Assembly (NCBI GenBank): GCA_039925885.1
Contig: JBDSYB010000129.1
Span: forward strand, 1 to 49,035
From: Verrucomicrobiota bacterium
GTDB lineage: Bacteria > Verrucomicrobiota > Verrucomicrobiia > Limisphaerales > CANJXF01
Length of the DNA: 49,035 nt
Direction of reading: 5' to 3'
Below, piece by piece: positions 5,467-49,035 of this stretch (position 1 is the first letter of the stretch; each line of letters opens with the position of its first letter). The notes under the pieces were generated by a model, which saw only the letters and a program-made list of their open reading frames with translations, did no database searches and was not told the origin of the DNA. Position numbers and translations under genes: made by a program.

Positions 5467-5476
5467 AAAACAATTT

Positions 5477-6502: not shown

Positions 6503-6504
6503 TC

Positions 6505-26547: not shown

Positions 26548-26639
26548 ACAAGGTGAGAATAAGAGTGAGAATAAAAAGTGCAAGAAATGGCTTTTTTAAA
26601 AACACTAAGCCGCTGTATATCAATTAATTGAAAAAGGTG

Positions 26640-32907: not shown

Positions 32908-33912
32908 ATGAAAAAATTTATCGCCGCCCTTGGAATTCTTGTGTTCGCAATTTCGACGAACCTCGCGTTCGCCGGAAAAACTTTGCTCAACGTTTCCTAC
33001 GACCCAACTCGCGAATTTTATCAGGAAATCGACACCGCGTTTTCATCTGACTGGAAACAAAAAACTGGCGAGGCGGTGACAATCAAGCAATCGCACAGCG
33101 GGTCTGGCAAACAGGCGCGCGCCGTGATTGATGGTCTGGAAGCGGATGTCGTGACGCTCGCGTTGGCTTACGACATTGACGCGCTTTACGAAAAAGGAAA
33201 ACTCATTCCCAAAGATTGGCAAAAGCGCTTGCCCAATAATAGTGCGCCCTACACTTCGACCATCGTGTTCCTCGTAAAAAAAAGAAATCCAAAGCAAATT
33301 AAAGATTGGGACGATCTCGTGAAAAGCGGGGTAGGGGTGGTCACGTCGAATCCGAAAACTTCGGGTGGAGCGCGTTGGAATTATTTGGCCGCTTATGGAT
33401 TCGCGCTGAAAAAAAATAACAACGATGAAACCAAAGCCAAACAATTCATCGAGCAACTTTATAAAAATGTTCCAGGGCTCGATGCCGGAGCGCGCGGTGC
33501 GACGACAACTTTCATTCAACGCGGCATCGGCGATGTATTGATCGCGTGGGAAAATGAGGCGTTACTCGCGATGAATGAACTTGGAAAAGGTAAATATGAA
33601 ATTATTTATCCCTCGGTCAGCATTCTCGCAGAGCCGCCGGTTGCAGTCGTGGATAAAGTTGTGGACAAGCGCGGGACCCGCGAAGTGGCCGAAGCGTATC
33701 TCCAATTTCTCTACAGCGACGCCGGGCAGGAAATCGCCGCGAAACATTATTTTCGCGCTCGCTCTGAAACGGTCGCTAAAAAACATGAGAAAACTTTTCC
33801 GCAGCTGACGATGTTCACGATTGACGAAGTTTTTGGCGGCTGGCAGAAAGCGCAGAAAACTCATTTCAACGACGGAGGATTGTTCGACCAGATTTCCAAG
33901 AGCCGCCGTTAG
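32908..33912 (+). CDS. sbp: sulfate/thiosulfate ABC transporter substrate-binding protein
   Basis: Signal peptide, then [13 protein letters not shown]...[31 protein letters not shown]...[19 protein letters not shown], which is characteristic of Sbp/CysP. Confidence 0.85.
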
Positions 33913-33919
33913 GAATCAA

Positions 33920-34756
33920 ATGGCGAGCGCGACCAAAAAGAAATTCAATCCGTTGCCGGGCTTCAAACTGACGCTTGGTTTCACGCTTTTTTATTTGAGC
34001 ATCATCGTGCTCCTGCCAATCGCAGCATTGGTCATCAAAACTTTCGGGCTTTCCTGGCGCGAATTTTGGGAACTGGCGACCAATGAACGCGCCATGGCCG
34101 CCTACAAACTGAGTTTGGGCGCATCGTTTGCCGCAGCGTTAGCCAATGCGATTTTCGGAAGCCTGCTCGCGTGGGTTCTCGTGCGTTACAAATTTCCGGG
34201 ACAACAATTTATTGATGGGTTAATTGATTTTCCATTCGCACTGCCGACCGCCGTCGCGGGCCTGACTCTGGCCAATATGTTTTCGGAAAATGGCTGGCTC
34301 GGACAATTTCTTGTCCCACACGGAATCAAAGGAGCATTCACGCCGCTCGGTGTGGCGATTGCCTTGACGTTTGTCGGAATGCCTTTCTCCGTCCGAACGC
34401 TTCAACCAGTGCTGGAAAATTTCGATCGCAGTGTCGAAGAAGTTGCCGCAACTCTTGGCGCAAATCGCTTGCGAACGTTTGTGCAAATTATCATGCCCGC
34501 GCTGCTGCCGACGATTATCACCGGATTCGCTTTGGCCTTTGCTCGCGCGCTCGGCGAATATGGTTCGATTGTTTTTATTTCCGGCAATCTGCCGTTCAAA
34601 ACTGAAATTGCTCCACAACTCATCGTCATGCGGCTCGAACAGTATGATTACACCGGCGCAATGGCGCTGGCCGTTGTACTGATGATTCTTTCCTTTGTGA
34701 TTCTCGGGACAATTAATCTGCTTGAAAATTGGTCCGCACGTTTCGGAAAACAATGA
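33920..34756 (+). CDS. cysT: sulfate ABC transporter permease CysT
   Basis: ATG at 33920. The protein is multi-pass and has the EAA-type loop LEEVAATLGANRLRTFVQIIMPALLP-like segment (SVEEVAATLGANRLRTF). It lies between sbp and cysW. Confidence 0.85.
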   Translation: MASATKKKFNPLPGFKLTLGFTLFYLSIIVLLPIAALVIKTFGLSWREFWELATNERAMAAYKLSLGASFAAALANAIFGSLLAWVLVRYKFPGQQFIDGLIDFPFALPTAVAGLTLANMFSENGWLGQFLVPHGIKGAFTPLGVAIALTFVGMPFSVRTLQPVLENFDRSVEEVAATLGANRLRTFVQIIMPALLPTIITGFALAFARALGEYGSIVFISGNLPFKTEIAPQLIVMRLEQYDYTGAMALAVVLMILSFVILGTINLLENWSARFGKQ

Positions 34757-35667
34757 CCGCTTCCCAAACACAACAAGAGGGAGTTGCCAAATCGCAGCGC
34801 AGCACACAAGAGCCTGCGCTTGTGAAATGGCTGTTGATCACCGTGGCGATTTTGTTTTCCGTCGTCTTTATTTTCCTGCCAATCATCAATGTTTTCGTGC
34901 AAGCATTCTCGAAGGGCTGGTCGCACTACTGGCAGGTTCTTACCCAGCCAGACACACATTCAGCCATTCGACTTACTTTATTGGTCGCCGCCATCAGCGT
35001 TCCATTAAACGTCGTGTTCGGCGTCGCTGCGTCCTGGGCCATTGCAAAATTTGAATTTCGCGGAAAATCAATTCTACTGACGTTCATCGATTTGCCTTTT
35101 TCAATTTCACCGGTGGTTTCGGGATTGATGTTCATTTTGCTCTTCGGCGTGAACGGGCTTTTCGGTTCGTGGCTCGATGCGCACGGCGTCAAAATTATTT
35201 TCGCCATCCCAGGAATCGTGCTTGCCACGATTTTCGTCACGTTCCCTTTTGTGGCGCGCGAACTTATTCCCTTGATGCAATCGACTGGCTCAGATCAGGA
35301 ACAAGTTGCGATGACGCTCGGGGCAAGTGGTTGGCAAACATTTTGGCATATCACGTTGCCATCCGTAAAATGGGGTTTGCTCTATGGAGTAATTCTCTGC
35401 AACGCGCGAGCGATGGGAGAATTCGGCGCGGTATCAGTCGTTTCCGGTCACATCACCGGCATGACCGACACGTTGCCTTTGCGCATCGAAAAACTTTATA
35501 ATGAATTCGACCCGGCCGCGCCGTTTGCTGTCGCCAGTTTGCTGGCTTTGCTCGCGCTGGTGACACTTGCCCTCAAAACAGTTTTGGTTTGGAAATCTGA
35601 AAGAGATGAACGAATTGCGCAGCAATCCGGCATAGCCCTGCGGCTTCGAACTGCCCCAAAAAAATGA
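34753..35667 (+). CDS. cysW: sulfate ABC transporter permease CysW
   Basis: ATGA overlap with cysT. It is a paralogous permease with DQEQVAMTLGASGWQTFWHITLP. Confidence 0.85.
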   Translation: MTASQTQQEGVAKSQRSTQEPALVKWLLITVAILFSVVFIFLPIINVFVQAFSKGWSHYWQVLTQPDTHSAIRLTLLVAAISVPLNVVFGVAASWAIAKFEFRGKSILLTFIDLPFSISPVVSGLMFILLFGVNGLFGSWLDAHGVKIIFAIPGIVLATIFVTFPFVARELIPLMQSTGSDQEQVAMTLGASGWQTFWHITLPSVKWGLLYGVILCNARAMGEFGAVSVVSGHITGMTDTLPLRIEKLYNEFDPAAPFAVASLLALLALVTLALKTVLVWKSERDERIAQQSGIALRLRTAPKK

Positions 35668-36767
35668 GTATCGAGTTACGTAACGTCAGCAAACAATTCG
35701 GCGAGGTTCCGGCCGTGAACAACATCAACTTCTCGGTTCAAGAAGGGGAATTGGTGGCGTTATTGGGGCCAAGTGGCGGTGGAAAAACGACCGTACTGCG
35801 AATGATCGGCGGTTTGGAAATGCCGACGCAGGGCGACATTTTTATTCGCGGCCAGCGAGTGAATGATGTTCCCGTGCAGAAGCGCAACATCGGTTTTGTT
35901 TTCCAAAGCTACGCGCTTTTCAGTTCGATGACGGTTTTCAAAAATATTGCGTTCGGTCTAAAAATTAAAAATTGGAAAAAGAAGGATCGAGAAAATCGTG
36001 TGGCGGAATTGATCCAGCTTCTCGAATTGCAAGGATTGGAAAAACGTTATCCACACCAACTTTCCGGCGGGCAACGCCAGCGAATCGCGATTGCACGAGC
36101 ACTTGCTTCCAAACCAGATGTGCTCTTGCTCGACGAACCGTTCGGTGCCGTCGATGCCAAAATCCGTCAGGAATTGCGTCAATGGCTGGTGAACCTGCAT
36201 CACGACCTGAAGCTTACGACGCTGTTTGTCACCCACGACCAGGAGGAAGCGATGGAAGTGTCCGACCGCATCGTGATTTTTTCCAAAGGCAATCTGGAAC
36301 AAATCGGCACGCCGCGAGAAATCTACGAACAACCGATGAATGAGTTTGTCGCGCGTTTCGTTGGCGTGATGAATATTTTGGAACTCGAAGTGCAAAATGG
36401 CGTCGCGCGGCGCAACGAACTGGAATTTCCAGCGCACGGATCAGCGGCCGGCCAAAAAATGCGGATTGGCTTCCGTCCCTACGCGGTGCAAGTTTCTTCA
36501 GACCTGACGGCCTATCGTTATCACGCCGTTTTGCGACATACCTATTTTCTCGGAGTCATGCTTCGGCTGGAACTGGTGTTGCCCAGCGGCCTTGTTCTGC
36601 GATCGCGAATCAGTAAAGAGGACTACTCTCGATTTGGGTTGGCAGACGGGAAAAAAGTGTCGTTTGAGATTCGGACTTATCGGATCCTCTCCCGCGAAGG
36701 AGGACTCCTCGGCGACGAAGTTGCCACCACCCATGAAATGCCTCCCAGCATCGGTGAGGGGATTTAG
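35664..36767 (+). CDS. cysA: sulfate/thiosulfate import ATP-binding protein CysA
   Basis: ATGA overlap with cysW. Walker A GPSGGGKTT, signature LSGGQRQR, Walker B LLLDEPF, and a C-terminal TOBE-like region. Confidence 0.85.
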   Translation: MSIELRNVSKQFGEVPAVNNINFSVQEGELVALLGPSGGGKTTVLRMIGGLEMPTQGDIFIRGQRVNDVPVQKRNIGFVFQSYALFSSMTVFKNIAFGLKIKNWKKKDRENRVAELIQLLELQGLEKRYPHQLSGGQRQRIAIARALASKPDVLLLDEPFGAVDAKIRQELRQWLVNLHHDLKLTTLFVTHDQEEAMEVSDRIVIFSKGNLEQIGTPREIYEQPMNEFVARFVGVMNILELEVQNGVARRNELEFPAHGSAAGQKMRIGFRPYAVQVSSDLTAYRYHAVLRHTYFLGVMLRLELVLPSGLVLRSRISKEDYSRFGLADGKKVSFEIRTYRILSREGGLLGDEVATTHEMPPSIGEGI

Positions 36768-37020
36768 AGCCGATAGCTCATACGTGGTTGTCTCCTAGAA
36801 CGGCATTCATTCGGCTTCAGCGCACGAGGCTTTTTGTGCGCCTGACTCTCCATTTCATAACGGAACTTTACCGTTTCCCTTTCCACAAGACATTTGTCCA
36901 CAAGCGGGACAGGAGGATTTGATCTGCTGCTTGGTTTTCAGGGCGGATTCTGCGGCACAACGGTTGCTGGACGGAACGCGACTTTGCGGAAGCCGAAAAA
37001 ATGATCAGCAATCGCATTTT

Positions 37021-37257
37021 ATGAACAAGTATTTGGTGTTTACATATTACGTTGGCCGCTCTCTTGGAGGCCTCAAGGACTATCTTGATGCTTTCGAGTC
37101 CGTCGAAGAAGCGCTGGACAACATTTTGTTGGAACGTAATCGCTATTACCAAATCGTGGACAGAGACTCGATGAAGGTCGTGCGCGAAGGACTCTCGATG
37201 TTTAAGAATTTTGTGCCTGAGAAATTTAGTTCCGAAAATCCCACGACGGACGAATAA
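37021..37257 (+). CDS. small hypothetical protein (78 aa)
   Basis: The ATG-initiated ORF MNKYLVFTYYVGRSLGGLKDYLDAFESVEEALDNILLERNRYYQIVDRDSMKVVREG... has a protein-like composition. I recognised no family. The overlapping antisense ORF looks artefactual. Confidence 0.3.
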   Translation: MNKYLVFTYYVGRSLGGLKDYLDAFESVEEALDNILLERNRYYQIVDRDSMKVVREGLSMFKNFVPEKFSSENPTTDE

Positions 37258-37603
37258 TTCTTCACCCACAGCCGCCTCCAACGAAATCATTCCGAAACTT
37301 CTTCAACTAATACAGACGCTCGGCGGGCATTGCGCCCAAATTTTACTTCCGGCAAAAGCAAGAGTGTCGCGGCGAAAATCAAACTCGCGCTGATCCAGCC
37401 GAGACTTCGCAGGGACTATCCGGTAATCAGTTGAAAACCGCACCGCGGCGCGATAATTCCGCGAAGGCCAGTGAAAGTGGTTGCGGCAGTTTCCAAGATG
37501 CCAGCGCTCAAGGCGCGCCATCGTTTGTAGCGATAAGTGATTTGAGTTGCGTCTGGCCCAGACATGCGGGTGAAGATAATCCGCAAAATGCCGCGCGCAA
37601 AAA

Positions 37604-38884
37604 CTATTCGTGGACCGTCAGAGCTGGGAGGTAAAGATTGAAACTTGTTCCCTGACCAACGACGGAGTGGAGGTGCAGACACCCGTTTGCTTCTTTCAAC
37701 AACCGATGGACAATTGACAACCCGAGGCCGGTTCCTTTCCCCGGCGCTTTGGTGGAAAAATAGGGTTCAAAGATTTTTGAAATCAGTTCTGGTGGAATTC
37801 CCGGACCGGTGTCTTCGACAGAAAGGCGCAAGACCGGTCCTGCACTTTTTAATCCATCGCAGTTCAGCAGGGCGTCGTTCAGCCCTGTTTGGATTTTAGT
37901 GAGGTCGGGAGTTTCGGAGCAAATTTTTCCCGTGATTTTGACGGAATGAGGTTCGTCGGTCGCTTGAAAGCCATTGATCGCCAGGTTGAGCAGGATTTGA
38001 ATCAAATCGGTTCCGTTAATTTGCAGCGTGACGTCTTTGGGCAGAGAAGTGATTTCCAACTCATGGTTCGCTGTGCTGGGATGGGCGCGCAGAAGTTCTT
38101 CCAAATCTTTCAGAACCTGGTTCACCCGGACGCGGGCGGTTTCAGTCGAACGCTGGCGCATGAAGCTGAGATAACGCTGCGATATTTCAATGCAGTTGGT
38201 GACCTGTCGCGTCATGCGTTTGAGGCGGTCTTTCACCATGTCCAATGCTTCGCCTTCGACGCGATTTGCGTCGGCAATACGTTGGTTGATGAGTTGGATG
38301 AAGCCGGAAATAATCGTGAGCGGCCCATTGATGTCATGAATAATGCTGGCGTAAATTTCCCCGCGGGATTTGGAAATTTCTTCCTGCAATTTCTGATTCT
38401 GTAACTGGGATTGCAGTTCCAGCAGCTTCGTATTATTCATCTGCATTTCATCCGAGAGGGAGCGGCGTTCCATCGCGCTGGCGACGGCTTTCCGCATCGT
38501 TCCGATATCGAATGGTTTGTTGAGATAATCGCACGCGCCGAAACGCAATGCCTGACGAGCGGTCTCAATCGTTTCGTAAGCCGTCAACATGATGACCTCA
38601 ATTCCTGGATCGACGGCTTTCAATTGTCCGAGCAATTCGATTCCTGTCATACCCGCCATGCGGATGTCCGAAATGACCGCATCCACTCGATTTTGTTTAG
38701 CCAGCTCAATCGCTTTCGGGCCGCTGTCGGCCAGCAGGATGGTGTAATCGTCTTTGAAAACGACGCGAAGCGATTGCCGCGGACCTTCTTCGTCATCGAC
38801 AATCAGCAGAGTATATTTGCGAGTTGGAATGTCCGTTTTTTTCAAGCTTGCAACATCAGGTTTCGTGAACGAATCAGTTAACAT
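37604..38884 (-). CDS. response-regulator receiver fused to histidine kinase (REC-HisKA-HATPase)
   Basis: REC: LLIVDDEEG...VISDIRMAGMTG...IMLTAY...LNKPF. H-box: IIHDINGPL. HATPase: LLNLAINGFQAT, DTGPGI, FEPYFSTK, GTGLGLSIV. Confidence 0.8.
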   Translation of the reverse strand: MLTDSFTKPDVASLKKTDIPTRKYTLLIVDDEEGPRQSLRVVFKDDYTILLADSGPKAIELAKQNRVDAVISDIRMAGMTGIELLGQLKAVDPGIEVIMLTAYETIETARQALRFGACDYLNKPFDIGTMRKAVASAMERRSLSDEMQMNNTKLLELQSQLQNQKLQEEISKSRGEIYASIIHDINGPLTIISGFIQLINQRIADANRVEGEALDMVKDRLKRMTRQVTNCIEISQRYLSFMRQRSTETARVRVNQVLKDLEELLRAHPSTANHELEITSLPKDVTLQINGTDLIQILLNLAINGFQATDEPHSVKITGKICSETPDLTKIQTGLNDALLNCDGLKSAGPVLRLSVEDTGPGIPPELISKIFEPYFSTKAPGKGTGLGLSIVHRLLKEANGCLHLHSVVGQGTSFNLYLPALTVHE

Positions 38885-39042
38885 GAAAAATCAATGAAGC
38901 GCGAAATTGCATGCAACGAAAGTTGCCTCCCTACCGCGAACCGTTTTGGATATTCCATCGCGCATTTACTACGTGAACCCGTCAACGGAGGCGATGCTAC
39001 AGAAAGAAGTTTAGCTCACAAGAATATTCAGTGATGCCGAAA

Positions 39043-41115
39043 CTAATTAGGCGAATTTTTTAATTTAACGGTTTTTACCGAAGGGACGGTTTCAAAAGGA
39101 AGTGAAATGCGAACCAGGCCGGGCTCGCCCGGACCGGTGTGAACGATTTCAAGTTTGCCATGGTGCGTCTCGATAATTTTTTGGCTGACCGTCAGTCCTA
39201 AACCCAAACCCACATTGCGCGTTGTGAAAAATGGTTCGGGAACTTTTTCCGCCGCTTCAGGAGCGAAACCTGAGCCGTTGTCTTGGACTTCAATGTAAAC
39301 TCCTCCGTGCCCGACGTTTTTTCCATTCGCGTCGGTCACCGTTTTGATTCGCACGCCAACTTGCGCGTCTGAAGGATTTGCCTGCAACGCGTTCAACATC
39401 ACTTCGGCCAGCGCATGCTTCAGCGCCGCGCGATCTCCTTCGACAATGATAGGCTGATTTCCTTTGTCGTATTTCAATTGGGACGATTTGACGGACTGAT
39501 GTTTTTTGGCTTCCTGAAAAGCTTCCTCAATCAGCGGCACGAGTGGAAATGCATCGTGTGAGGCCGTCGAATCGCGCGCTAGAAATCGCATCTGATTCAG
39601 GAGTCGGCCCACACGTTTGACCCCGTCGGCCAGAGCGGAATCCAACGAGGCGCGAAATTCCGCATCTTTATATTTGTCGGCGAGTAATTGCTGATGGGTT
39701 GAAATCGGCACCATCGCATTTCCAATTTCGTGCGCGAGGCGGTCGGCCATCATTTTAACGAGGCGCAAATTGGCCGCCTCAATTTCCAGGTGTTGTAGTT
39801 GCTGGCTTTGGGTGTGGTCTTCCACCATGAGCAACGCGGAGTTTGGCAATACTGAATTTTCTCCCTGGAACGGAACAATGGTCACGTGATAAATCGTCTC
39901 AGGATTTTCCGGCGGATTATATTTGAAGGTCGAGACAGCGGTGCCGGTTTTGAGTACTTGATAAACTTTACTGCCCAACGTTTGCGGCAGATCACTGAAT
40001 TCAAGATCAGTATTGCGGCGACCCGCCGAGGTAAAATATTTCCTCGCCATTTTATTGACGTGCAGAATGGTGAGATCGCGGTTGACGACGACGCACGCGC
40101 TGCTGAGCTGACGCAAAATGTCGGCCATCATTTCGTGGTTGGCCGAAAGCTGGTCGTGCAAAGAAATATTTTTCACCGCCAGTGCCAATTCCTCCAGCAA
40201 ATGGAAAATCAATTCGAGTTCACCATTGCTGAGCGACTCGCCGGTGACACGTCCATCAAATGTGGCAATACCCACCAACGTTTCGCGATCAAGAATTGGA
40301 ATCGCGACTTCTGCTCCCAGCAATTCAAATTCCTTTTGGATCTCCAGATCGGATTGTGCGTCGAAACCGTTGCGGCGTACGATTTTGTTGTGACGGAAAA
40401 GATGACCGCCAATGCCCGCGTCGAAAGACAATTGGAAATGTTCCAGCATGCCGGTGGGCAGGCCGATGGCGCAAGCGGAACGCAGGCGGCGGCTTTCGTC
40501 GAGGGGGATTTTTCCGCTAAAAACCGATCCTGTCGGGCGCAAAAAAATGGCGGCGCGATTGACGCCAATTAACTCTCGCAGAAAAAGTAAGAATTGTTTC
40601 AGCATTGCTTCAGCGCAAAGCGAGTGGGTGAGAATGGCGGAAAAATCGCGCAAAACTTCGAGCGCCTGAAACGCTTTTTGTCCGCCTTCCGTGGCGGGAG
40701 TTTTTTCAGCCGGACGAAGCGCACGATTGGTCGCGGTGGGGACGTCCAGTCGTGAATTGGTTGAAGCCCAAAGTCGTTCGAGCAACGTGTTGAGGATTCT
40801 CGGACGAACTGGTTTGGTCAAAATATGGGCGACGCCGTGAAGATAAGCTTCTTCCTCCCATTCCCAGTTCGGGCCGGAAAACAGAAGTATCGGACACCTG
40901 GGAAGATTGCGCCGCAGCTTTTCAATGATCCAAATACCTTGAACGTCGGTGAGATCGACATCGATGATGCTCGCGTCAACCAGTCCGTGAATTAAGAGTG
41001 GTTCTGCGTCCTCAATATTGAGGCGATAAACGACTTTGTAATGTTCCGAACTAAGACACTCTCGAATCGAATCCGCCAGCTCCGGGTGTTGGGCCAAGAC
41101 AAGTAACGTTTTCAT
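39043..41115 (-). CDS. sensor histidine kinase with N-terminal receiver-like domain, GAF and PAS-like regions
   Basis: The receiver-like N-terminus lacks the acidic pair (LLVLAQHPE). The central region is GAF-like and PAS-like. H-box LAHEIGNAM. HATPase MLNALQAN, DNGSGF, EPFFTTR, GLGLGLTV. Confidence 0.8.
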   Translation of the reverse strand: MKTLLVLAQHPELADSIRECLSSEHYKVVYRLNIEDAEPLLIHGLVDASIIDVDLTDVQGIWIIEKLRRNLPRCPILLFSGPNWEWEEEAYLHGVAHILTKPVRPRILNTLLERLWASTNSRLDVPTATNRALRPAEKTPATEGGQKAFQALEVLRDFSAILTHSLCAEAMLKQFLLFLRELIGVNRAAIFLRPTGSVFSGKIPLDESRRLRSACAIGLPTGMLEHFQLSFDAGIGGHLFRHNKIVRRNGFDAQSDLEIQKEFELLGAEVAIPILDRETLVGIATFDGRVTGESLSNGELELIFHLLEELALAVKNISLHDQLSANHEMMADILRQLSSACVVVNRDLTILHVNKMARKYFTSAGRRNTDLEFSDLPQTLGSKVYQVLKTGTAVSTFKYNPPENPETIYHVTIVPFQGENSVLPNSALLMVEDHTQSQQLQHLEIEAANLRLVKMMADRLAHEIGNAMVPISTHQQLLADKYKDAEFRASLDSALADGVKRVGRLLNQMRFLARDSTASHDAFPLVPLIEEAFQEAKKHQSVKSSQLKYDKGNQPIIVEGDRAALKHALAEVMLNALQANPSDAQVGVRIKTVTDANGKNVGHGGVYIEVQDNGSGFAPEAAEKVPEPFFTTRNVGLGLGLTVSQKIIETHHGKLEIVHTGPGEPGLVRISLPFETVPSVKTVKLKNSPN

Positions 41116-41265
41116 CGTTCGTAATTCGAACCAAAAATTTCCATAAAAATGCTATCTGATTCCAAAAATCCACTAGCGTGTTATACATTTTTTCCTGACG
41201 CTGGCAACTCATTGCTGAACCTTTCTTGGGTGCCCCGTTGGAAATCCGCCGAAAGCGGGCAAGTA

Positions 41266-42516
41266 CTACTCGGTCGCGATCAATTTTTCCCAGACGACAT
41301 CGTTCAACAGCACTTTTTGCAGGAATTTTTCGTCTTCCTGCACAGCCGGAGGTGAATTGGGATTGGTGAGCAACTGTAGAACGAACGTTGTGCCCAGGCC
41401 TTCGTTCCGCGCCTCAATGCTTCCTCCGTGATGATGCACGATAAAAAAACAAGCCATCAGATTAATCCCATATTCCAGCGGGGTGTCGGTCCGCAAAGCG
41501 AATGGATCAAACACGAGTTGCAACGCATCCTTTGGCAAGCCAGGCCCATCGTCAGCGACTTTGATCTCGATGTGTCCATTGCGTCCCGAAGCCGAAAGCC
41601 GAACGGTGCTGCCCGAAGGCAAACTGACGATTTCGTCTTTAAACAACAATTCGAAGAGCCGAGAAAATTTTGGCCGATCTACCATCAGAGGCGAAAGCGA
41701 AGTGGGAATATTGTTTTCGACCGCGATATTTTTTTCCGCAAAATTGGGCGCCAGTTTTTTTACCACCTCCGCGACCACTTCATGAAGCTGGACGCTATCG
41801 GCGAACCCCAATGAAGGATTATCCGAGGCCGCCCACAAGTCCTTGAGCATGTTGTTGATTTTCTCGATCTGGAATTGGACATTCTGATGGTAGTCTTTCC
41901 AAAATTCCGGGTTGCGCAAATCTTCGTCCGCCTTTTCCTCATGCATTTTCGTTGGCGCTAAATCCAGAAATGTTTTCACGGCGACGAGCGAATTGCGGAT
42001 GTGATGGCTCATGCCTGCCGCCAAAAGCCCTAATCGAACTATGTGTTCGGCCACCATCATGTTGCGGAGCACCGAAACTTTTTCTTTCAACAACATGTCG
42101 CGCTCTTGTTGCGTGGCAAAAAATTCCAGGGCGCGTTTTAAGGTTTGCTCCAGATGCGGCGGGTCCCACGGTTTGGTGACATATTTATAAATCGCACCCG
42201 TGTTCACGGCCGCAATTGCCGCATCCATGTCTGCGTAGGCCGTGGCCAAAATTCGGATAATGCGCGGGCGGAGTTGGCGCGCTTTTTCGAGAAGCCAAAC
42301 GCCTTTTTCGCCAGGCATCCGCTGATCGGTCATCAGAACGCCAATGTCGTCTTTGTGTTCTTCCAGAAGTTTGAGACCTTCTTGGGCGTTGGATGCGGTC
42401 AGAATGCGGAAGTGTTCTTCGAAGGCGCGCGCAAAATATTTCAGCGACATCTCTTCGTCATCGACGTAGAGAATGGCAAAGCGTTTTGAATTCGAAATGT
42501 TTTGCGTCACGGCCAA
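41266..42516 (-). CDS. response-regulator receiver fused to a degenerate histidine-kinase-like domain (PhcR-like architecture)
   Basis: TTG start at 42516. REC: ILYVDDEE...LMTDQRMPGEKG...ILATAY...VTKPWD. The H-box-like motif is GMSHHIRNSL. The G1 box DDGPGL is present, but the N box (ELLFKDEI) and G2 box (EYGINLMACF) are degenerate. Confidence 0.75.
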   Translation of the reverse strand: MAVTQNISNSKRFAILYVDDEEMSLKYFARAFEEHFRILTASNAQEGLKLLEEHKDDIGVLMTDQRMPGEKGVWLLEKARQLRPRIIRILATAYADMDAAIAAVNTGAIYKYVTKPWDPPHLEQTLKRALEFFATQQERDMLLKEKVSVLRNMMVAEHIVRLGLLAAGMSHHIRNSLVAVKTFLDLAPTKMHEEKADEDLRNPEFWKDYHQNVQFQIEKINNMLKDLWAASDNPSLGFADSVQLHEVVAEVVKKLAPNFAEKNIAVENNIPTSLSPLMVDRPKFSRLFELLFKDEIVSLPSGSTVRLSASGRNGHIEIKVADDGPGLPKDALQLVFDPFALRTDTPLEYGINLMACFFIVHHHGGSIEARNEGLGTTFVLQLLTNPNSPPAVQEDEKFLQKVLLNDVVWEKLIATE

Positions 42517-42536
42517 TTAGTTTTTCGGAATTTACT

Positions 42537-45230
42537 CTAGCGTTTCGCCGGGAATTCCAAAGTAAATTCAGCAAATTTCCCCGGTTCGCTGGCCACACTG
42601 ATTGTGCCGTTGTTTTCCTGCATAATCTGGTAGCAAATGCTCAATCCAAGCCCCATGCCTTCACCGACATCTTTCGTGGTAAAAAATGGATCAAAAATTT
42701 TGTTCATCGCTGCTTCGGGAATCCCGTTTCCGTTGTCGCGAAGGGTGATGATGCTTGTATTCTCATCCATTTTTCCACTGATCCAAATTGTTGGTTTCGT
42801 GTCGGCGTCAAAAATTTTCCCCTTCAACGCATCGAGCGAATTTTGCAGCAAGTTGATAAAAACCTGGAGCAATCGATTTGTATTGCCGAAGACAACCTGT
42901 CTTTCCGGCACATTGAGTTCGATGTGGACGCGATCCTTCCATTCATTGCCCGTGAATCGCAGCGCGGAATTAACGACTTGCAAAATCTCGATGGCTTCCG
43001 AGTGTCCGGTGTCGGGATGAGTAAATTTTCGCAGATCGAGAACGATATTCTTGACTCGACTGATACCTTCTTCCACGTCCTTCAACACTTCCGCATATTG
43101 CGCCTGCTGTTCAGCGGCGAGAAACTTGCCTTTGTTCCGCAACGTGTAAAGTCCAGTTGCCGCATAGTTCAGCGGATTGTTAATTTCATGAATGATTCCG
43201 GCGCTCATGCGTCCCATCGACGCCATTTTTTCGGTCTGGACCAACTGCATTTCAGTCTGCTTAAGTTGCTCGATGGTTTGTTCCAATAGTTTGTTTTTGT
43301 CCGCCAATTTTTCCTGATAGTCGTGCGCGTCCAAAAGATTTTTAATGCGGACGTGAAGTTCAGTCGTGGAAAAAGGCTTCGTTAAAAAATCATTTGCTCC
43401 AGCGGAAAGCGCCGTGAGTTTCGTCTGCTCATCCCCGCGCGCCGTCAACATGATGATTGGAATATTTCTGGTCGCGCTCTTTTCGCGCAACTCGCGGCAA
43501 ACCTGCAATCCGTCTTTCTCCGGCATGTTCATGTCCACCAGAATGATGTCGGGAATATTTTCCAACGCTTTTTCAACGGCCTCTTTTCCGTCGATCGCTT
43601 CGGTGACTTGAAATTTATTTTTCAACTGCGATTTGAGGAAACGCAACATGTCCGGCTCGTCGTCAGCGATCAAAATATTTGGATTGTTTCCGTTGTGGGA
43701 AATTTCTGTCGCTTCAACTTCCTGGGTCGCGGTTGCCGGAAAAAATTCCGCGCGCCGATACAAATTTGCCAGCCACTCTTCGGATTGCGGAGCGGAAACT
43801 TCGTTCGATGGCGCTGAAGGAATTTGTTCGTGAGCGGTTTGGATTTGCAAAGGCTCAACTTGCGCCGCGCTGTCTGCTGGCAAATACGGAATTCGCACCG
43901 TGAATTTTGTTCCTTTGCCTTCCTCGCTTTCCACCGAAACTTTGCCGCCGTGGATTTCCGTGAGTTCTTTGACCAGCGACAATCCAATGCCAACACCTTG
44001 AAATTTTCGTTTGGAGGAACCGTCCGCTTGCCAAAAGCGGTCGAACACAAAGGGCAAATTCTTTTGTGCGATTCCAATGCCGGTGTCCGTCACGGTCAGA
44101 AGAAAATCTTTTCCCTCCCTGGCGACGCGTAATTCCACGCGCCCATCTTTGGGAGTGAATTTCAACGCGTTAAAAATCAAATTCAAAATCACTTTTTCAA
44201 GTTTGTCGCGGTCAACCAGCACTGCGCCGAAATCCGGCTCCACGGAAATCTCCAGTTTGATTCCTTTATTTTCCGCCATTTGTTGCGCGGCGCTGGCGAT
44301 GTTGCGGATGAACGCCGTCATCTCCATCGGCTCCCGTTTCACTTCCAGACGGCCCGATTCCAAACGAACGAGATCAAGCAAGTCGTTGATCAATTTCAGA
44401 AGCCGCATCCCGTTGGCGTGCATGATTCCAAACAAACTTTTGGTCTCGCCGTCAAAACTCCCGCCGCGCTGGTGAAGCATCGTTTCGAGCGGCGAAAGTA
44501 AAAGCGTTAGCGGCGTGCGCAGTTCATGACTGATATTCGCGAAGAAACGGTCTTTGACCTGGCCGAGTTCGACGAGCTTTTCGTTGGTCTGCTCCAACAT
44601 CCGGCGGTTCTTGTCCAATTCGTAACGCAACGCGAATTCGCGAAAGCGCAACTTGTTGAAAAAATAATTTCCCGTAATGACGATGATTCCCGTGAGCGTG
44701 AGAAAATAGAGATTGTTGAAAAAGATTCCAAAATTCGCCAGCGCGCCCGGTTTTAGAAAACAGGCCGCCAAATACATCAGCGTGATCAGGCCGACTGTGA
44801 TGAACGACTCCAGGATGCTCCAATGCAGAACGACGTTGAGCGCGAGCAGAATTAAATTCAGCCCGGCGTAATATGGAGAAACCGTTCCCTCAGTGGCCCA
44901 GATCATCCAGTCGATGAAAAATGCGGGCGAGAGAACAATCGCCATGCCGAGGAGCCGATGGTGTTTCTGGCCAAAACTTTTGGTGTAAAGAAACCACATC
45001 ATTGCCGCGACCACAGAACAAGCCAGACGCAAGGCGAAAAATTCCGGGACACGATCGCGATAAACAAAGAAATCCAGAGTGACTCCGGCGGGCATGAGGA
45101 ACACCACGAGCGCAGAACCGACCTTGCCCGCGTGGATTCTCTCCCGCAGTTCATGAATGCGATAGGTCTCTTTGAATTCTGGCGAATCCAGGAGAGCTTC
45201 GTTAACCGTTGTTGGGTTTTCTGACTTCAA
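42537..45230 (-). CDS. membrane-embedded hybrid sensor kinase with two complete kinase cores (about 6 TM, HisKA/HATPase, REC, HisKA/HATPase)
   Basis: TTG start at 45230, 29 nt inside the upstream gene. About six hydrophobic segments have only short loops. Core 1: SHELRTPL, NLIFNALKFT, DTGIGI, GVGIGLSLV. REC: ILIADDEPD...LVDMNMPEKDG...KPF. Core 2: IIHEINNPL, NLLQNSLDAL, DNGNGI, GMGLGLSI. Confidence 0.8.
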   Translation of the reverse strand: MKSENPTTVNEALLDSPEFKETYRIHELRERIHAGKVGSALVVFLMPAGVTLDFFVYRDRVPEFFALRLACSVVAAMMWFLYTKSFGQKHHRLLGMAIVLSPAFFIDWMIWATEGTVSPYYAGLNLILLALNVVLHWSILESFITVGLITLMYLAACFLKPGALANFGIFFNNLYFLTLTGIIVITGNYFFNKLRFREFALRYELDKNRRMLEQTNEKLVELGQVKDRFFANISHELRTPLTLLLSPLETMLHQRGGSFDGETKSLFGIMHANGMRLLKLINDLLDLVRLESGRLEVKREPMEMTAFIRNIASAAQQMAENKGIKLEISVEPDFGAVLVDRDKLEKVILNLIFNALKFTPKDGRVELRVAREGKDFLLTVTDTGIGIAQKNLPFVFDRFWQADGSSKRKFQGVGIGLSLVKELTEIHGGKVSVESEEGKGTKFTVRIPYLPADSAAQVEPLQIQTAHEQIPSAPSNEVSAPQSEEWLANLYRRAEFFPATATQEVEATEISHNGNNPNILIADDEPDMLRFLKSQLKNKFQVTEAIDGKEAVEKALENIPDIILVDMNMPEKDGLQVCRELREKSATRNIPIIMLTARGDEQTKLTALSAGANDFLTKPFSTTELHVRIKNLLDAHDYQEKLADKNKLLEQTIEQLKQTEMQLVQTEKMASMGRMSAGIIHEINNPLNYAATGLYTLRNKGKFLAAEQQAQYAEVLKDVEEGISRVKNIVLDLRKFTHPDTGHSEAIEILQVVNSALRFTGNEWKDRVHIELNVPERQVVFGNTNRLLQVFINLLQNSLDALKGKIFDADTKPTIWISGKMDENTSIITLRDNGNGIPEAAMNKIFDPFFTTKDVGEGMGLGLSICYQIMQENNGTISVASEPGKFAEFTLEFPAKR

Positions 45231-46608
45231 TGAAAATGTTGACTCCGGTGATGTCGGACTTCACGGAAAAATCGTCGAGGTGCGCTTTCTCCGGAATAAG
45301 TTTTCGGGCTTGTTGCGAAGTGCGATAAATCAAATGCCAGTCGAGCAAAGTCTCCATCGTGTGGCGCATCGGGTTGCAAACATCCACGTTCGTCACCAGC
45401 AAAAGTCCTCCGGGCCGCACCATTTCATAAAAAATATTCATCAAACGCAGGCAGACTTGATCGGAAAGATAATCAAATAACCCGGCGCAATAAACCAGAT
45501 CGTATTGCGGCGCGTTGGGCGCGGCCTTGGCGCCATCCTTGACGATTTGCTGCACCGATTTTTTGACAAACTTAATCGGCGTGGATCGCCCCTGTTTGAT
45601 TTTGATTTCCTGCAAAACTTCCCGAGTGTGCGCCAATGTTTCCTCGTTGAAATCAAGCAAAGTGAAACGTGCGCGATCGCATAAATCTTTTTCGGTCAGA
45701 AAATTTTGGATTTCCCACGCTGGGCCGCATCCTAGGTTGAGTGCGTCCATCGGCCTTTTTTGCAACGAGACACGCGCGGTTTCCTCCACCAGTTTTTGAG
45801 TCAGATAGGCGACGCGATTGCGATGCGCTTCGGCGGGCGGTTGCTTCAGAAACCAGAGATTGATGATTTTGGCGAAGAGCGAGTTGCCCTCCGTTTCGCG
45901 CATCATCATGTTCACCATTTCGTAATCACCGGCATAACCCAGCGGTTTTTGAAAAGTTCGATAGGCAAAGGGCGAGCAAAGAACCAGCGAATGCAATTGG
46001 CGTCGCATATATCCCTGATGCACAGCGCGGGCATTTTCATCGAGCTGATTGGCCATCGTTTCAAACTTATCGAAAAACATATTGACCGTTTGAATGACTA
46101 CCGGGGCGAGTTCCTGAATGGCTTTGCGTTCGAGTTGCAAACGATTTTGCGAAGTCCCCATTTCCAATTCGACTTGTTCGAGCCAGAGTCGCAAATCGAC
46201 GAGGAACGTTTCCATGTCCGCAATTAAAATTTTGTATTCTGGAATAATTTTATGATGCTTCTGCCATTTCTGCATGAAGCTGCTGAAACCTTGCGCCACA
46301 CTTTTTCCGGAATTTTCCGCAGGCAAAAAAACCTCGTCGCTCCAGGTTTCGTCCAAGGTCGCTTCGCAAATCATGGTCGTGCCGGTGTTGACCAGATTAC
46401 GAATGACGGCTTTGCCGGAGTAAACCTGCCGTTTGTTGATGGAAATTTTTACCTCGCTCAACACCTCGGACATTTGCAGGACGATGTGCGGATCATAAAT
46501 CTCCAGCACCACCTGGCGGCGCGAAAAGCGCACGAGGATGGTGTGCAATTCAATGCCGCGACTGGTTTTGCAACTCACCGTCGTACTTGGATTTGTTGTC
46601 GGGTCCAT
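45202..46608 (-). CDS. class I SAM-dependent methyltransferase with long N-terminal extension (PhcB-like, putative signal-ester synthase)
   Basis: 468 aa with an ATG start. Motif I is ALNLGCGPAWEIQNF, post-I is TLLDFNEE, and DLVYCAGLFDYLSD is present. The N-terminal ~290 aa have no methyltransferase motifs. It is the first gene of the kinase operon. Confidence 0.6.
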   Translation of the reverse strand: MDPTTNPSTTVSCKTSRGIELHTILVRFSRRQVVLEIYDPHIVLQMSEVLSEVKISINKRQVYSGKAVIRNLVNTGTTMICEATLDETWSDEVFLPAENSGKSVAQGFSSFMQKWQKHHKIIPEYKILIADMETFLVDLRLWLEQVELEMGTSQNRLQLERKAIQELAPVVIQTVNMFFDKFETMANQLDENARAVHQGYMRRQLHSLVLCSPFAYRTFQKPLGYAGDYEMVNMMMRETEGNSLFAKIINLWFLKQPPAEAHRNRVAYLTQKLVEETARVSLQKRPMDALNLGCGPAWEIQNFLTEKDLCDRARFTLLDFNEETLAHTREVLQEIKIKQGRSTPIKFVKKSVQQIVKDGAKAAPNAPQYDLVYCAGLFDYLSDQVCLRLMNIFYEMVRPGGLLLVTNVDVCNPMRHTMETLLDWHLIYRTSQQARKLIPEKAHLDDFSVKSDITGVNIFIEVRKPNNG

Positions 46609-47008
46609 TTTCTAAAACCTGTTTCTTTCAAATCGGCGCAAACTGTTCCGCAGAGCAGCCTGATGACCAAGGAATTTGGTTCGCTCAGAAATACGGATGA
46701 TAACTATGGGAAAACCAATCTGACGAACAGTCAATTTCTCCGCAGACCCAAGCCGAAATCTTGCGCGCCTGTCCTAATTCGGGGAAGAGTTGGCATGCGG
46801 AATGTCGGTTGAATGTCTAATTTTTGCTGATTTTCTTCCAAAAAGATTTCTTTTGACACCTTTTGAGACGGTGTTCCCCTCTGGCATTTGCCGTGCTGAA
46901 GGCGGAGCGAAGTCCATGAAACCAAACCTGATAAAGGAAATGAAATTGACAGACTTCTTTTTGTCTGGCGTTCATAAAATTAATTTTGCAAGCGGTCGCG
47001 GAAAATTT

Positions 47009-48307
47009 ATGAGTAAAACAAAGCCAGCCATAATTATGATGAATATATTTAATCGCAAATTTCGGCTGATAAATCCCATGCCACTGGCCGAACGCCTTTT
47101 TCTTTTCGTAATCGTTTCCGGCATGATGCTTTGTCTTCCAAATCGCGTCGATGCTCTTGGATTCCGCATTCCGAATCAAGATGCCGAAGCGACCGGGCGC
47201 GGCAACGCATTTACGGCCACGGCGAACAATCCTTCCGCAATTTACTACAACCCAGCGGGCATCACCCAACTCGAAGGACTGAATGCCCAAGTTGGTTTTC
47301 ACATCATTTCTGTCAATTCGCATTACGAATCGGCGACCACGGGAAAAAAATCAGACACGGAATTCGACGTCCTTCCGGTTCCACAAGCTTATTATACTTA
47401 TTCACCAAAGGAGAGTCCGCTCTCGTACGGTCTGGGCATTTACGTTCCCTACGGGCTTGGTTTGGAATGGCCGGAAGACACTGGGTTTCGCACTCTGGCC
47501 ATTCGCGGTCAGCTTAACTACACCACCATCAATCCGGTGTTCGCGTATCAGGTTTGTCCTTCGCTTTCAATTGCCGCAGGGCCGACGATCAATTATGCGC
47601 GCCTCAAATTGAAACAAGGTATCCTCGCGCCGGGTGACTCTTTTAAATTCGACGGCGAAGATACTGCCTTCGGATTTAATTGCGGAATTCTTTGGCAGCC
47701 ATTCGAGAAGTGGTCGTTCGGCGCAAATTATCGCAGCGAAACCACCATGGATTTTGAAGGGCAGGCGGACGTGCAAAGTGTCGTGCCAGCAGCGGTTCCA
47801 TCCGGCTCCAAACATTCGGTAGCGAGCGCTCCTTTCGCTCAATTTGCCATGGCGGGAATTTCTTTTCGACCGAGTGAAAAGTGGAATATTGAAGTCGGCG
47901 TGGATTGGACGGATTGGGATTCGTTAAATACGGTCACCTTCAAACACACGTCGCTCGGCGATATAAATTTTCCGCTGAATTGGGAATCCAGCTTTTTGTA
48001 TGAATTAGGTGCGAGCCGCTATTTTGAAAATGGTTACTTCCTCAGCGCCGGATATTTCTACAGCCAAAATTCCACGTCGGAACGGAGCTTTAATCCAATC
48101 GTGCCCGACACGGATTTGCACGTCGGTTCGCTTGGATTCGGCTACAAAGGCGAGCATTGGCGCTGGGCGTTAAGCGGACAAATTATCATAGGCCCGACGC
48201 GAACGGTGGACAGCAGCAAATCGACATCTCTCGTGGGCCAATCCGCCAATGGAAAATATCATTGGTTCAATCAAGCGGTGAATGTTTCCGTGGGCTATCA
48301 TTTTTGA
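47009..48307 (+). CDS. outer-membrane hydrophobic-compound channel, FadL/OmpP1/TodX family
   Basis: The start is uncertain (ATG at 47009 chosen). Leader LFLFVIVSGMMLCLPNRVDA, then GFRIPNQDAEATGRGNAFTATANNPSAIYYNPAGI, the conserved N-terminal hatch motif of FadL-type proteins. The C-terminus is aromatic (VGYHF). Confidence 0.75.
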   Translation: MSKTKPAIIMMNIFNRKFRLINPMPLAERLFLFVIVSGMMLCLPNRVDALGFRIPNQDAEATGRGNAFTATANNPSAIYYNPAGITQLEGLNAQVGFHIISVNSHYESATTGKKSDTEFDVLPVPQAYYTYSPKESPLSYGLGIYVPYGLGLEWPEDTGFRTLAIRGQLNYTTINPVFAYQVCPSLSIAAGPTINYARLKLKQGILAPGDSFKFDGEDTAFGFNCGILWQPFEKWSFGANYRSETTMDFEGQADVQSVVPAAVPSGSKHSVASAPFAQFAMAGISFRPSEKWNIEVGVDWTDWDSLNTVTFKHTSLGDINFPLNWESSFLYELGASRYFENGYFLSAGYFYSQNSTSERSFNPIVPDTDLHVGSLGFGYKGEHWRWALSGQIIIGPTRTVDSSKSTSLVGQSANGKYHWFNQAVNVSVGYHF

Positions 48308-48333
48308 TTCAGGTTTTTTAAAAATCTGGGCGC

Positions 48334-49035
48334 TCACGAATTTTTCTGCGCTTCAACGACGCGCTTGAAAAATTTGTTCGTCCCGATTTTCTCGATGATC
48401 CACGCCGCCGCCGCCGGCCACACCACGCACAGCGCGAGCAAGGGTTTCACCGGCCACCGATTGATGATGATTTCCGGAATGTCTCGTTCGAGGCAGCGCA
48501 CCACTGCGCGTGCCACTGCTTGCGGCGGCGAAGTGCCAAGCAACGCTGGCGCTGCGCAATGGGTTCGCTCTTTCAAGTTAGCGTAAATCCCCGCCTCCAC
48601 GAATCCCGGCGTCACCACCGATGCGCTCACACCCGTCCCGCGATATGTGGCGCGCAAGGAACAAGTGAATGCGATCAAACCCGCTTTCGTCGCCGCGTAG
48701 GGCTCCTGATAGGCCGGCCCGGATCTTCCCGCGAGCGATGAAATATTCACAATATGACCGCGCTTTTGTTCCAACATTGCTGGCAAAACCAATCGCGAAA
48801 GAATCATCGGCGCTTCGAGATTCACCGCAATGGTTTCCTGAATATTTTGTTCCGATAAATCGTGGTAAGTCGACGTGAATTCCACTCCCGCGTTGTTCAC
48901 CAAAACGTCAATCCGCCCAAATTCAGCAATTACTTTTTCAATCACCAAATGCCGTTGTGAATGAATCCGCAAATCCGCCGGAAACGCGATGACTCGACCG
49001 CCTTTCGGCGCGATTTGTTTTCGCAAATCTTCCAG
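48334..49035 (-). CDS. SDR family oxidoreductase; 5' end lies outside the window
   Basis: The frame is open to the window edge. VLVNNAGV, NISSLAG and YAATKAG (YxxxK) are classical short-chain dehydrogenase motifs. Confidence 0.8.
   Translation of the reverse strand: MEDLRKQIAPKGGRVIAFPADLRIHSQRHLVIEKVIAEFGRIDVLVNNAGVEFTSTYHDLSEQNIQETIAVNLEAPMILSRLVLPAMLEQKRGHIVNISSLAGRSGPAYQEPYAATKAGLIAFTCSLRATYRGTGVSASVVTPGFVEAGIYANLKERTHCAAPALLGTSPPQAVARAVVRCLERDIPEIIINRWPVKPLLALCVVWPAAAAWIIEKIGTNKFFKRVVEAQKNS

Follow-up and report, generated by a model that had tools for sequence, protein, structure and literature searches.

This study asked whether a cluster of five genes in the genome of a Verrucomicrobiota bacterium (GenBank assembly GCA_039925885.1, contig JBDSYB010000129.1) encodes a signalling module of the Phc type, in which a methyltransferase makes a lipid signal and a membrane kinase reads it. 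The whole stretch analysed, 49,035 nucleotides (nt) from position 1 of the contig, is called the window. PhcB makes 3-OH MAME or 3-OH PAME ((R)-methyl 3-hydroxymyristate or (R)-methyl 3-hydroxypalmitate), and PhcS senses it (PMC7694676, PMC13320629, PMC6989110). A sequence-only reading of the window had proposed that the cluster mirrors phcB-phcS-phcR, with a 468-residue (aa) methyltransferase, a hybrid kinase with a sensor of about six membrane helices, a receiver fused to a kinase-like domain and two extra kinases, all facing a divergently transcribed FadL channel. The comparisons described below suggest that the locus is probably a Phc-type signal synthase and sensor module, equipped with a relay resembling LvrA of Leptospira and with a FadL channel.

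The open reading frame (ORF) table listed five consecutive minus-strand ORFs running head to tail from position 46608 down to 37604, with inter-gene spacings of -29, 20, 150, and 158 nt (5' to 3'); these values agreed exactly with the sequence-only reading. Because the ORFs are long, match their families strongly, and have conserved orthologues, they are judged not to be chance ORFs. For comparison, we scanned one genome per species across 185,579 species and analysed the best 80 of the at least 593 matching loci, to which the locus counts given below refer; individual loci carry numbers with the prefix L.

The 468-aa protein encoded by the first gene exhibited class I S-adenosylmethionine (SAM) methyltransferase domains at residues 269-425 in Pfam, in the C-terminal part in which such motifs had been expected. 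BLASTP revealed 39% identity with PhcB of Ralstonia pseudosolanacearum (residues 10-459 against 10-458, E 8e-111) and 38.7% identity with Cupriavidus PhcB over residues 1-461. The Ralstonia reference, P0263 of locus L085, carries the NCBI name "methyltransferase PhcB [Ralstonia pseudosolanacearum]"; this reference and that of Cupriavidus (L084) were reached by using an operon of Paraburkholderia graminis as a stepping stone. That operon comprises a methyltransferase, a 445-aa kinase, and two response regulators, and its plasmid-borne methyltransferase was 40% identical over 96% of the protein (tblastn against plasmids).

The PhcB match extended beyond the Rossmann core and covered the N-terminal beta-barrel, the helical middle domain, and the methyltransferase domain, which occupied residues 9-85, 104-281, and 287-463 in an AlphaFold2 model of the window protein (mean model confidence, pLDDT, 87). 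An alignment of 46 sequences from both clades of the family contained 63 invariant columns spread over all three domains, with motifs including KPLGYAGDY, HRNR, GCGP, and YCAG.FDY. Because both the PhcB match and the invariant columns span all three domains, the possibility that the likeness is confined to the Rossmann core fails, and the proposed kinship with PhcB holds over the full length of the protein. Close homologues are named 3-hydroxypalmitic acid methyl ester biosynthesis protein, or "phcB", in automatic JGI annotation. A search of 5.8 billion proteins retrieved thousands of full-length relatives, and the family formed 637 clusters at 50% identity (E<=1e-30). On this basis, the methyltransferase is the presumed signal synthase, and its homology with PhcB suggests that it most likely esterifies a fatty-acid-derived carboxylate.

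General searches gave coarser answers. Among solved structures searched by sequence, only generic methyltransferase cores were matched (best E 0.003), and a Foldseek search of the AlphaFold2 model against the PDB returned only generic small-molecule methyltransferases, with query-normalised TM-scores of 0.37 or less that are uninformative on the substrate. NCBIfam contained no PhcB-specific model; its best match was BioC, at 24 bits against a cut-off of 185.

The N-terminal barrel of the window protein (46354-46584, residues 9-85) was well modelled and carries invariant residues. In Ralstonia PhcB, signal output falls when R22 in this barrel domain is changed to cysteine (R22C; PMC6989110); at the equivalent position, the window protein has a histidine. 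We considered a PilZ domain as the identity of the barrel and rejected it, there being no Pfam match of any kind even at E<=10 in three family members. Genuine N-terminal PilZ domains were present in three distant members of the family, P0398, P0414, and P0427 (27-33 bits against a cut-off of 22.5), and a fourth distant member, P0376, carries an extra N-terminal receiver domain (E 2e-24). Such N-terminal signalling domains suggest that, in these distant members, the activity of the enzyme may itself be under signalling control.

The second gene encodes an 897-aa protein in which Pfam and hydropathy analyses revealed, in order, six helices, a HisKA and HATPase module (K1), a receiver, and a second HisKA-like and HATPase module (K2). 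The six hydrophobic helices lay within residues 37-188 and were connected by short loops; the hydropathy scan found hydrophobic helices in no other protein of the cluster. The helices and short loops were as the sequence-only reading had described them, but its term hybrid kinase requires correction, as the protein is not a plain hybrid kinase and contains two complete kinase modules.

We compared a profile of 17 window-type sensor domains with a profile of three PhcS sensors by using hhalign, which reported a match with a probability of 99.9% (E 1.5e-34) over 197 columns. The two groups share motifs, including SPYYAGLNL, and 7 of the 17 orthologous sensors matched the Pfam family MASE8 (PF20968) singly, the best at E 1.8e-5. 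Because of this profile-profile match with the MASE8-bearing PhcS sensors, which we regard as decisive, the six-helix sensor is judged to be homologous to the MASE8 sensor of PhcS. In BLASTP, residues 31-448 of the window kinase aligned with PhcS 17-439 at 27% identity (E 3e-34), and the K2 module (residues 639-894) aligned with the PhcS kinase core (188-439), coiled-coil linker included, at 36% (E 2e-49). By these alignments, K2, and not K1, is the counterpart of the PhcS kinase core. The suggested relationship between the membrane kinase and PhcS was thus borne out for both sensor and core.

K1 directly follows the sensor, with HisKA at residues 226-293 and HATPase_c at 340-449 in Pfam. Across 61 long-form orthologues, its H-box SHELRTPL was conserved together with the N, G1, F, and G2 boxes; the internal receiver (Response_reg, E 2e-30) retained the motifs DDEPDM, DMMMP, LTARAD, and KPFS, and K2 retained its HEINNP H-box and its N, G1, and G2 boxes. 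Because all catalytic motifs were kept in these 61 orthologues, K1, the receiver, and K2 are all judged to be under selection. About 58-60 complete kinases of 873-1048 aa exhibited this long form, in which the sensor is followed by K1, the receiver, and K2. Eight loci (L013, L018, L022, L032, L039, L049, L070, and L080) encode a short form of 453-486 aa, whose sensor runs straight into a K2-type core as in PhcS. The long form may be a PhcS into which a full kinase-receiver stage was inserted; alternatively, the short form may be a deletion derivative.

The third gene starts 20 nt after the gene of the 897-aa protein and encodes a 416-aa protein with receiver (REC), HisKA, and HATPase domains in Pfam. 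It matched PhcR at 28% identity over nearly its full length (15-367 against 11-357, E 4e-29), the end-to-end match expected if the gene is the PhcR counterpart that had been proposed, and its receiver and linker matched PhcQ 11-224 at 39% (E 6e-42). The 62 orthologues kept the receiver motifs, the G1 box, and a C-terminal tail (FL..VL.N..LWEKLL) but had substitutions at the N-box asparagine and in the G2 box. Because of these substitutions, the description "kinase-like" is apt; the protein may be a pseudokinase or a phosphotransfer protein.

The association of these genes was conserved across genomes. A homologous six-helix sensor directly followed the methyltransferase in 76 of the 77 loci with enough downstream sequence, and the 416-aa orthologue cluster was present in 62 of the 80 loci. 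Among the 65 loci with enough upstream sequence, 38 contained a FadL-family gene within 1.5 kb upstream of the methyltransferase, divergent in 21 and co-directional in 17. Conservation of the four genes as neighbours had been named as a check on the proposal, and these counts favour it, as did the outcome of each of the other computational checks named in the sequence-only reading. The closest relatives (L002, L009, L013, L021, and L059) reproduced the gene order of the window.

Carriers among the best 80 loci belonged mostly to Verrucomicrobiota, from several orders; others were metagenome-assembled genomes (MAGs) labelled delta-proteobacteria, Binatia, Haliangiales, FCPU426, and Limnocylindria. 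The phylum counts were taken from record titles and are to be read with caution, as some MAG labels are implausible (Bifidobacteriaceae for L014 and L015; lake-derived "Akkermansia muciniphila" for L044 and L048). The module was also present in Verrucomicrobiae bacterium DG1235 (L062), the sole record not labelled as a MAG, and in Prosthecobacter-type genomes, here represented by MAGs. The genus Prosthecobacter has cultured members. Our literature search found no paper meaningfully linking phcB with Verrucomicrobia, none on the family in hosts other than Burkholderiaceae, and none linking FadL with 3-OH PAME or Phc signals; the Phc papers that were read name Ralstonia, Cupriavidus, and Paraburkholderia as the sole genera with homologues (PMC6989110). 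The sequence-only reading had stated that no characterised equivalent is known in the Planctomycetes, Verrucomicrobia, and Chlamydiae (PVC) group. The family reaches beyond the PVC group and has already received the automatic label "phcB".

A variant phc-like locus, L082, labelled Cupriavidus necator, consists of a methyltransferase, a MASE8 kinase, and a PhcQ-like regulator, without PhcR. It was set aside as a reference, and the chromosomal loci L084 and L085 were used instead. Because L082 is flanked by transposase and integrase genes and a HigB toxin, the phc-like module can, this locus suggests, move horizontally. A similar set of genes was found on the conjugative Paraburkholderia graminis plasmid pPHS1_P.

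The FadL/TodX gene opposite the methyltransferase matched Toluene_X (PF03349) at E 1.3e-49 and 169 bits, against a cut-off of 29.7. The mechanically called ORF (46790-48307) starts with a TTG at 46790 and is over-extended; with the likely ATG start at 47009, the divergent spacer measures 400 bp, the distance that had been given for it, and the N-terminus resembles a signal peptide, with a hydrophobic stretch followed by VDA-LG. Two FadL subfamilies, 45-60% and 22-29% identical to that of the window, occupied the same position in different lineages, and a single FadL cluster occurred anywhere in the locus in 46 of the 80 loci. Because FadL genes are few per genome, this linkage cannot be due to chance; the argument is from gene number per genome and not from a genome-wide background. 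Known FadL/TodX genes have fatty-acid or toluene catabolic genes as partners, whereas the FadL gene of the window stands beside a signal-synthase and kinase module.

Beyond the FadL gene lies a short-chain dehydrogenase/ketoreductase (SDR) gene (adh_short, E 6e-40). SDR orthologues with 54-64% identity adjoined FadL in 6 loci, and in 4 of these (L011, L018, L019, and L034) the SDR, FadL, methyltransferase, and kinase genes followed one another on one strand. A ketoreductase would be in keeping with provision of a 3-hydroxy acyl precursor, but only a minority of loci have this linkage. Beside FadL, 11 loci (L007:7213-8331 and ten others) encode a protein of approximately 350 aa that has an HxxxDG motif and matches PapA_C below threshold (E 2e-4); this protein may be an acyltransferase.

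Two further kinases follow the PhcR counterpart, as had been noted in setting the cluster apart from Phc. The 690-aa protein contains REC, GAF, PAS, HisKA, and HATPase domains (Pfam), and orthologues were found at the same position in 20 loci. Its N-terminal receiver (40786-41115, minus strand) lacked the acidic Asp-Asp pair (LVLAQHP) in 21 of 21 sequences, and the kinase motifs were intact. The N-terminal domain is probably a pseudo-receiver, and the protein probably brings in a second input, from the cytoplasm, rather than accepting a phosphoryl group. The 426-aa protein contains REC (E 3e-27), HisKA, and HATPase domains (Pfam) with conserved catalytic motifs and has orthologues in 18 loci.

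No member of the cluster has a DNA-binding domain. Ten Verrucomicrobiaceae/Prosthecobacter-type loci (L029, at 5207-6583, L031, L043, L046, L048, L058, L060, L061, L065, and L068) encode a NarL-type regulator with REC and GerE domains and a 234-aa protein directly upstream of the FadL, methyltransferase, and kinase genes. The 234-aa protein had no Pfam match and resembled a sensor-less kinase core by eye. This arrangement suggests that the REC-GerE regulator is a candidate transcriptional output in that lineage.

Set beside Phc, the window shares the order of synthase, membrane sensor kinase, and receiver-kinase-like protein; synthase and kinase genes that overlap or abut (by 29 nt of overlap in the window); a third gene with the PhcR architecture; and a homologous full-length synthase, six-helix sensor, and K2 core. 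The Ralstonia locus L085 encodes PhcB of 467 aa, PhcS of 442 aa with MASE8, PhcR of 374 aa, and PhcQ of 336 aa. Unlike this 442-aa PhcS, the 897-aa window kinase has an extra HisKA-HATPase-receiver stage between the sensor and the PhcS-type core; furthermore, two kinases follow in the window, and the host belongs to Verrucomicrobiota, whereas Phc is found in Betaproteobacteria. By sequence, membership in the Phc group is therefore indicated for the synthase, the sensor domain, and the PhcR-like protein, but not for the PhcS architecture or PhcQ.

The long kinase has a second precedent in Leptospira, where LvrA, with a histidine kinase-receiver-histidine kinase (HK-REC-HK) arrangement, phosphorylates LvrB (REC-HK) (PMC5863495), and phosphorylation of the LvrB receiver frees or activates its catalytic kinase domains (PMC13269768). 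In module order, LvrA (sensor-HK-REC-HK) and LvrB (REC-HK) correspond to the 897-aa and 416-aa proteins of the window, and both pairs lack a DNA-binding domain. Unlike the window kinase, LvrA is cytoplasmic, with a PAS sensor and no membrane domain, and the LvrA/LvrB paper makes no mention of a methyltransferase (PMC5863495). Of the NCBIfam models (NF047465/NF047466), that for LvrA aligned with residues 201-894 of the 897-aa protein at 312 bits against a cut-off of 1200, and that for LvrB gave 47-205 bits against a cut-off of 500, below the family cut-off. The likeness is judged to be architectural and not one of orthology. Because the HK-REC-HK and REC-HK arrangement matches that of LvrA and LvrB, this pair provides a tested template for a path from K1 to the receiver, to K2, and on to the receiver-controlled kinases.

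The general plan of the locus also recalls the alpha-hydroxyketone systems CqsA/CqsS of Vibrio and LqsA/LqsS of Legionella, in which the synthase of a hydrophobic, fatty-acid-derived signal is encoded beside a kinase with a sensor of approximately six membrane helices and no periplasmic domain. The ligand of CqsS and LqsS is read within the membrane. CqsA and LqsA are unrelated pyridoxal phosphate-dependent acyl-CoA transferases, and the sensor fold family is likewise unrelated to that of the window.

These likenesses lead us to propose the following mechanism. With SAM as methyl donor, the PhcB-family methyltransferase would O-methylate a fatty-acid-derived molecule at its carboxyl group; as in Ralstonia, a 3-hydroxy fatty acid is the most likely substrate. 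This would yield a neutral, membrane-permeant methyl ester that partitions into membranes, where the six-helix MASE8-like domain of the 897-aa kinase would read it inside the bilayer. The sensor would set the activity of K1, K1 would phosphorylate the internal receiver, and the phosphorylated receiver would switch on the PhcS-type K2, after the model of LvrA and LvrB. The signal would then pass to the 416-aa receiver-controlled kinase-like protein, the counterpart of PhcR and PhcQ; in the lineage of the window, the relay may also reach the 690-aa GAF-PAS kinase, with a possible cytoplasmic input, and the 426-aa receiver-kinase. The FadL channel would provide the route of the hydrophobic ester across the lipopolysaccharide-covered outer membrane, and the final output, DNA-binding or other, would be encoded outside the cluster. 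What we infer from these comparisons is the nature of the product, its action outside the cell, the sequence of phosphotransfer steps, and the direction in which FadL transports.

Several observations weigh against this proposal. An identity of 39% with PhcB fixes neither the substrate nor its chain length. The sensor of the window itself has no Pfam MASE8 match at E<=1, and the 416-aa protein may be inactive as a kinase, since it lacks the N-box asparagine and the G2 box. FadL proteins are classically known as importers, and passage of a signal through FadL is a role that we infer for a family known for uptake. The model system lends this role no support, as the phc loci of Ralstonia and Cupriavidus contain no FadL; neither FadL nor SDR, both linked in the window, lies within 9 kb of phcB in these genera. 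Lying behind gaps of 150 and 158 nt, the last two kinases may or may not be co-transcribed, a point on which the promoter and terminator scans were uninformative. Unlike the Phc locus, the window cluster has no separate PhcQ gene, a PhcQ-like receiver being fused to a PhcR-like body, and no LysR-type domain turned up among the subset of window ORFs that were scanned with Pfam, no search of the window aimed at PhcA having been made. The known Phc output cannot be assumed here, given no separate PhcQ and no PhcA-like LysR protein. In Ralstonia, phcA is unlinked to the phc locus.

Other readings of the same genes have to be weighed against the proposal. The strongest of them, which we consider unlikely, is a cell-autonomous circuit: the enzyme would modify a lipid or fatty acid kept in the cell's own membranes, the MASE8-like kinase would report this internal pool, and with it the lipid status of the membrane or envelope and not cell density, and FadL would import exogenous fatty acids by which the pool is fed or perturbed. 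Such a circuit agrees with a sensor that is wholly intramembrane, with the classical role of FadL proteins, and with the lack of any encoded secretion function; the GAF-PAS kinase in the cascade suggests that metabolic inputs are integrated, and the REC and PilZ fusions of distant methyltransferase members fit an internally regulated enzyme. However, a neutral methyl ester is expected to exit the cell, and the one-to-one pairing of synthase and sensor (76 of 77 loci) is a hallmark of autoinducer systems. Moreover, the homologous enzyme-sensor pair uses a diffusible extracellular signal in the only members that have been studied (PMC7694676, PMC6989110).

Improbable in our view is a regulon for uptake and catabolism in the manner of TodX/TodST or FadL/FadR, in which FadL would import a compound, the kinase would sense it, and the methyltransferase and SDR would process or detoxify it. 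A FadL/TodX channel does adjoin a two-component system, six loci retain the SDR next to FadL, and a possible acyltransferase stands beside FadL in 11. Nevertheless, neither the window nor the conserved clusters include a linked catabolic operon (oxygenases, beta-oxidation genes); it is the PhcB-family enzyme, strongly homologous to a known synthase, that invariably accompanies the sensor, and FadL is missing from approximately 40% of the loci. We give very little credence to a CheR-like protein carboxyl methyltransferase that covalently adapts the adjacent kinase, since the strict adjacency of the pair and the sub-threshold matches to the CheR SAM-binding family (PF01739; 16.6 bits, E 0.0056, for the window protein and 26 bits for a distant member, against a cut-off of 27) are offset by the failure to reach that cut-off, by best Foldseek matches to small-molecule O- and C-methyltransferases, by the characterised homologue PhcB being a 3-OH MAME or 3-OH PAME synthase (PMC13320629, PMC7694676), and by the lack of a linked CheB-like demethylase. 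A Phc-type synthase and sensor module accounts better than any of these rivals for the strict synthase-sensor pairing together with the homology to PhcB.

Features of the Phc-like locus and its FadL-side neighbours, with window coordinates unless a locus is named
Feature	Position	Strand	Basis
PhcB-family SAM-dependent methyltransferase, 468 aa	45202..46608	-	Pfam, BLASTP
897-aa kinase, whole gene	42537-45230	-	ORF table
MASE8-like six-helix membrane sensor, residues 1-200 of the 897-aa kinase	44631..45230	-	hydropathy, hhalign
First kinase module K1 (HisKA and HATPase), residues 201-460	43851..44630	-	Pfam
Internal receiver domain, residues 517-632	43335..43682	-	Pfam Response_reg
Second kinase module K2 with coiled-coil linker, residues 640-897	42537..43313	-	PhcS match
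Receiver and kinase-like protein, 416 aa, putative PhcR counterpart	41266..42516	-	Pfam, BLASTP
Probable pseudo-receiver, GAF, PAS, and histidine kinase, 690 aa	39043..41115	-	Pfam
Receiver and histidine kinase, 426 aa, last in the run	37604..38884	-	Pfam
Divergent intergenic region between methyltransferase and FadL genes	46609..47008	.	coordinates
FadL/TodX-family outer-membrane channel	47009..48307 (mechanical ORF from 46790)	+	Pfam Toluene_X
SDR, cut by the window end	48334..49035	-	Pfam adh_short
SDR orthologues	L011:7673-8593, L018:14-754, L019:3335-4258, L021:7033-7938, L034:7581-8438, L038:7695-8621		

The divergent intergenic region would presumably hold the promoters of both the methyltransferase and the FadL genes. 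It contained a single weak sigma-70-like match, on the minus strand at 46726-46697. In the scan of 36700-48500, promoter-like sites were no commoner than in shuffled sequences, and no terminator was found in the 150- and 158-nt gaps. Scans of the window for tRNA genes and Rfam families found nothing.

On the 3' side of the last kinase, a 140-aa ORF (36868-37290) was kept only in the nearest relative, L002. It is doubtful as a part of the system, has no Pfam match, and was not counted. Past this ORF lies a sulfate/thiosulfate-type ABC transporter on the plus strand (32908-36767), comprising an SBP_bac_11 binding protein, two permeases, and an ATPase with a weak, sub-threshold TOBE-like match; its linkage to the kinase cluster was not kept in relatives. 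Farther away, a tyrosine recombinase/integrase ORF (25402-26583, minus strand; Phage_integrase, E 1e-22) sits amid glycoside hydrolase, BNR, and Calx-beta genes.

Research on Phc signalling has dealt almost solely with its role as a virulence switch in Ralstonia. Judging from the at least 593 genome loci matched here, the pairing of synthase and sensor is conserved as a module in several hundred bacterial species or more. It is possible, and we advance the idea only tentatively, that these loci represent a widespread, unrecognised class of quorum sensing in Verrucomicrobiota and several other poorly studied phyla, one that would combine PhcB-type methyl esters, chemistry diversified by ketoreductases and acyltransferases, FadL-gated passage, and a multi-kinase relay without a DNA-binding member. 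If true, it would be the first cell-cell signalling system for Verrucomicrobiota, a phylum abundant in soil, water, and the gut, and would provide the first autoinducer with its own outer-membrane conduit. The proposal makes testable the possible chemical communication of the carriers, the reading of an ester by a purely intramembrane sensor, and the crossing of a lipopolysaccharide-bearing outer membrane by a hydrophobic signal. The long and short forms of the sensor kinase constitute a natural experiment on the insertion of a kinase-receiver stage into a signalling pathway.

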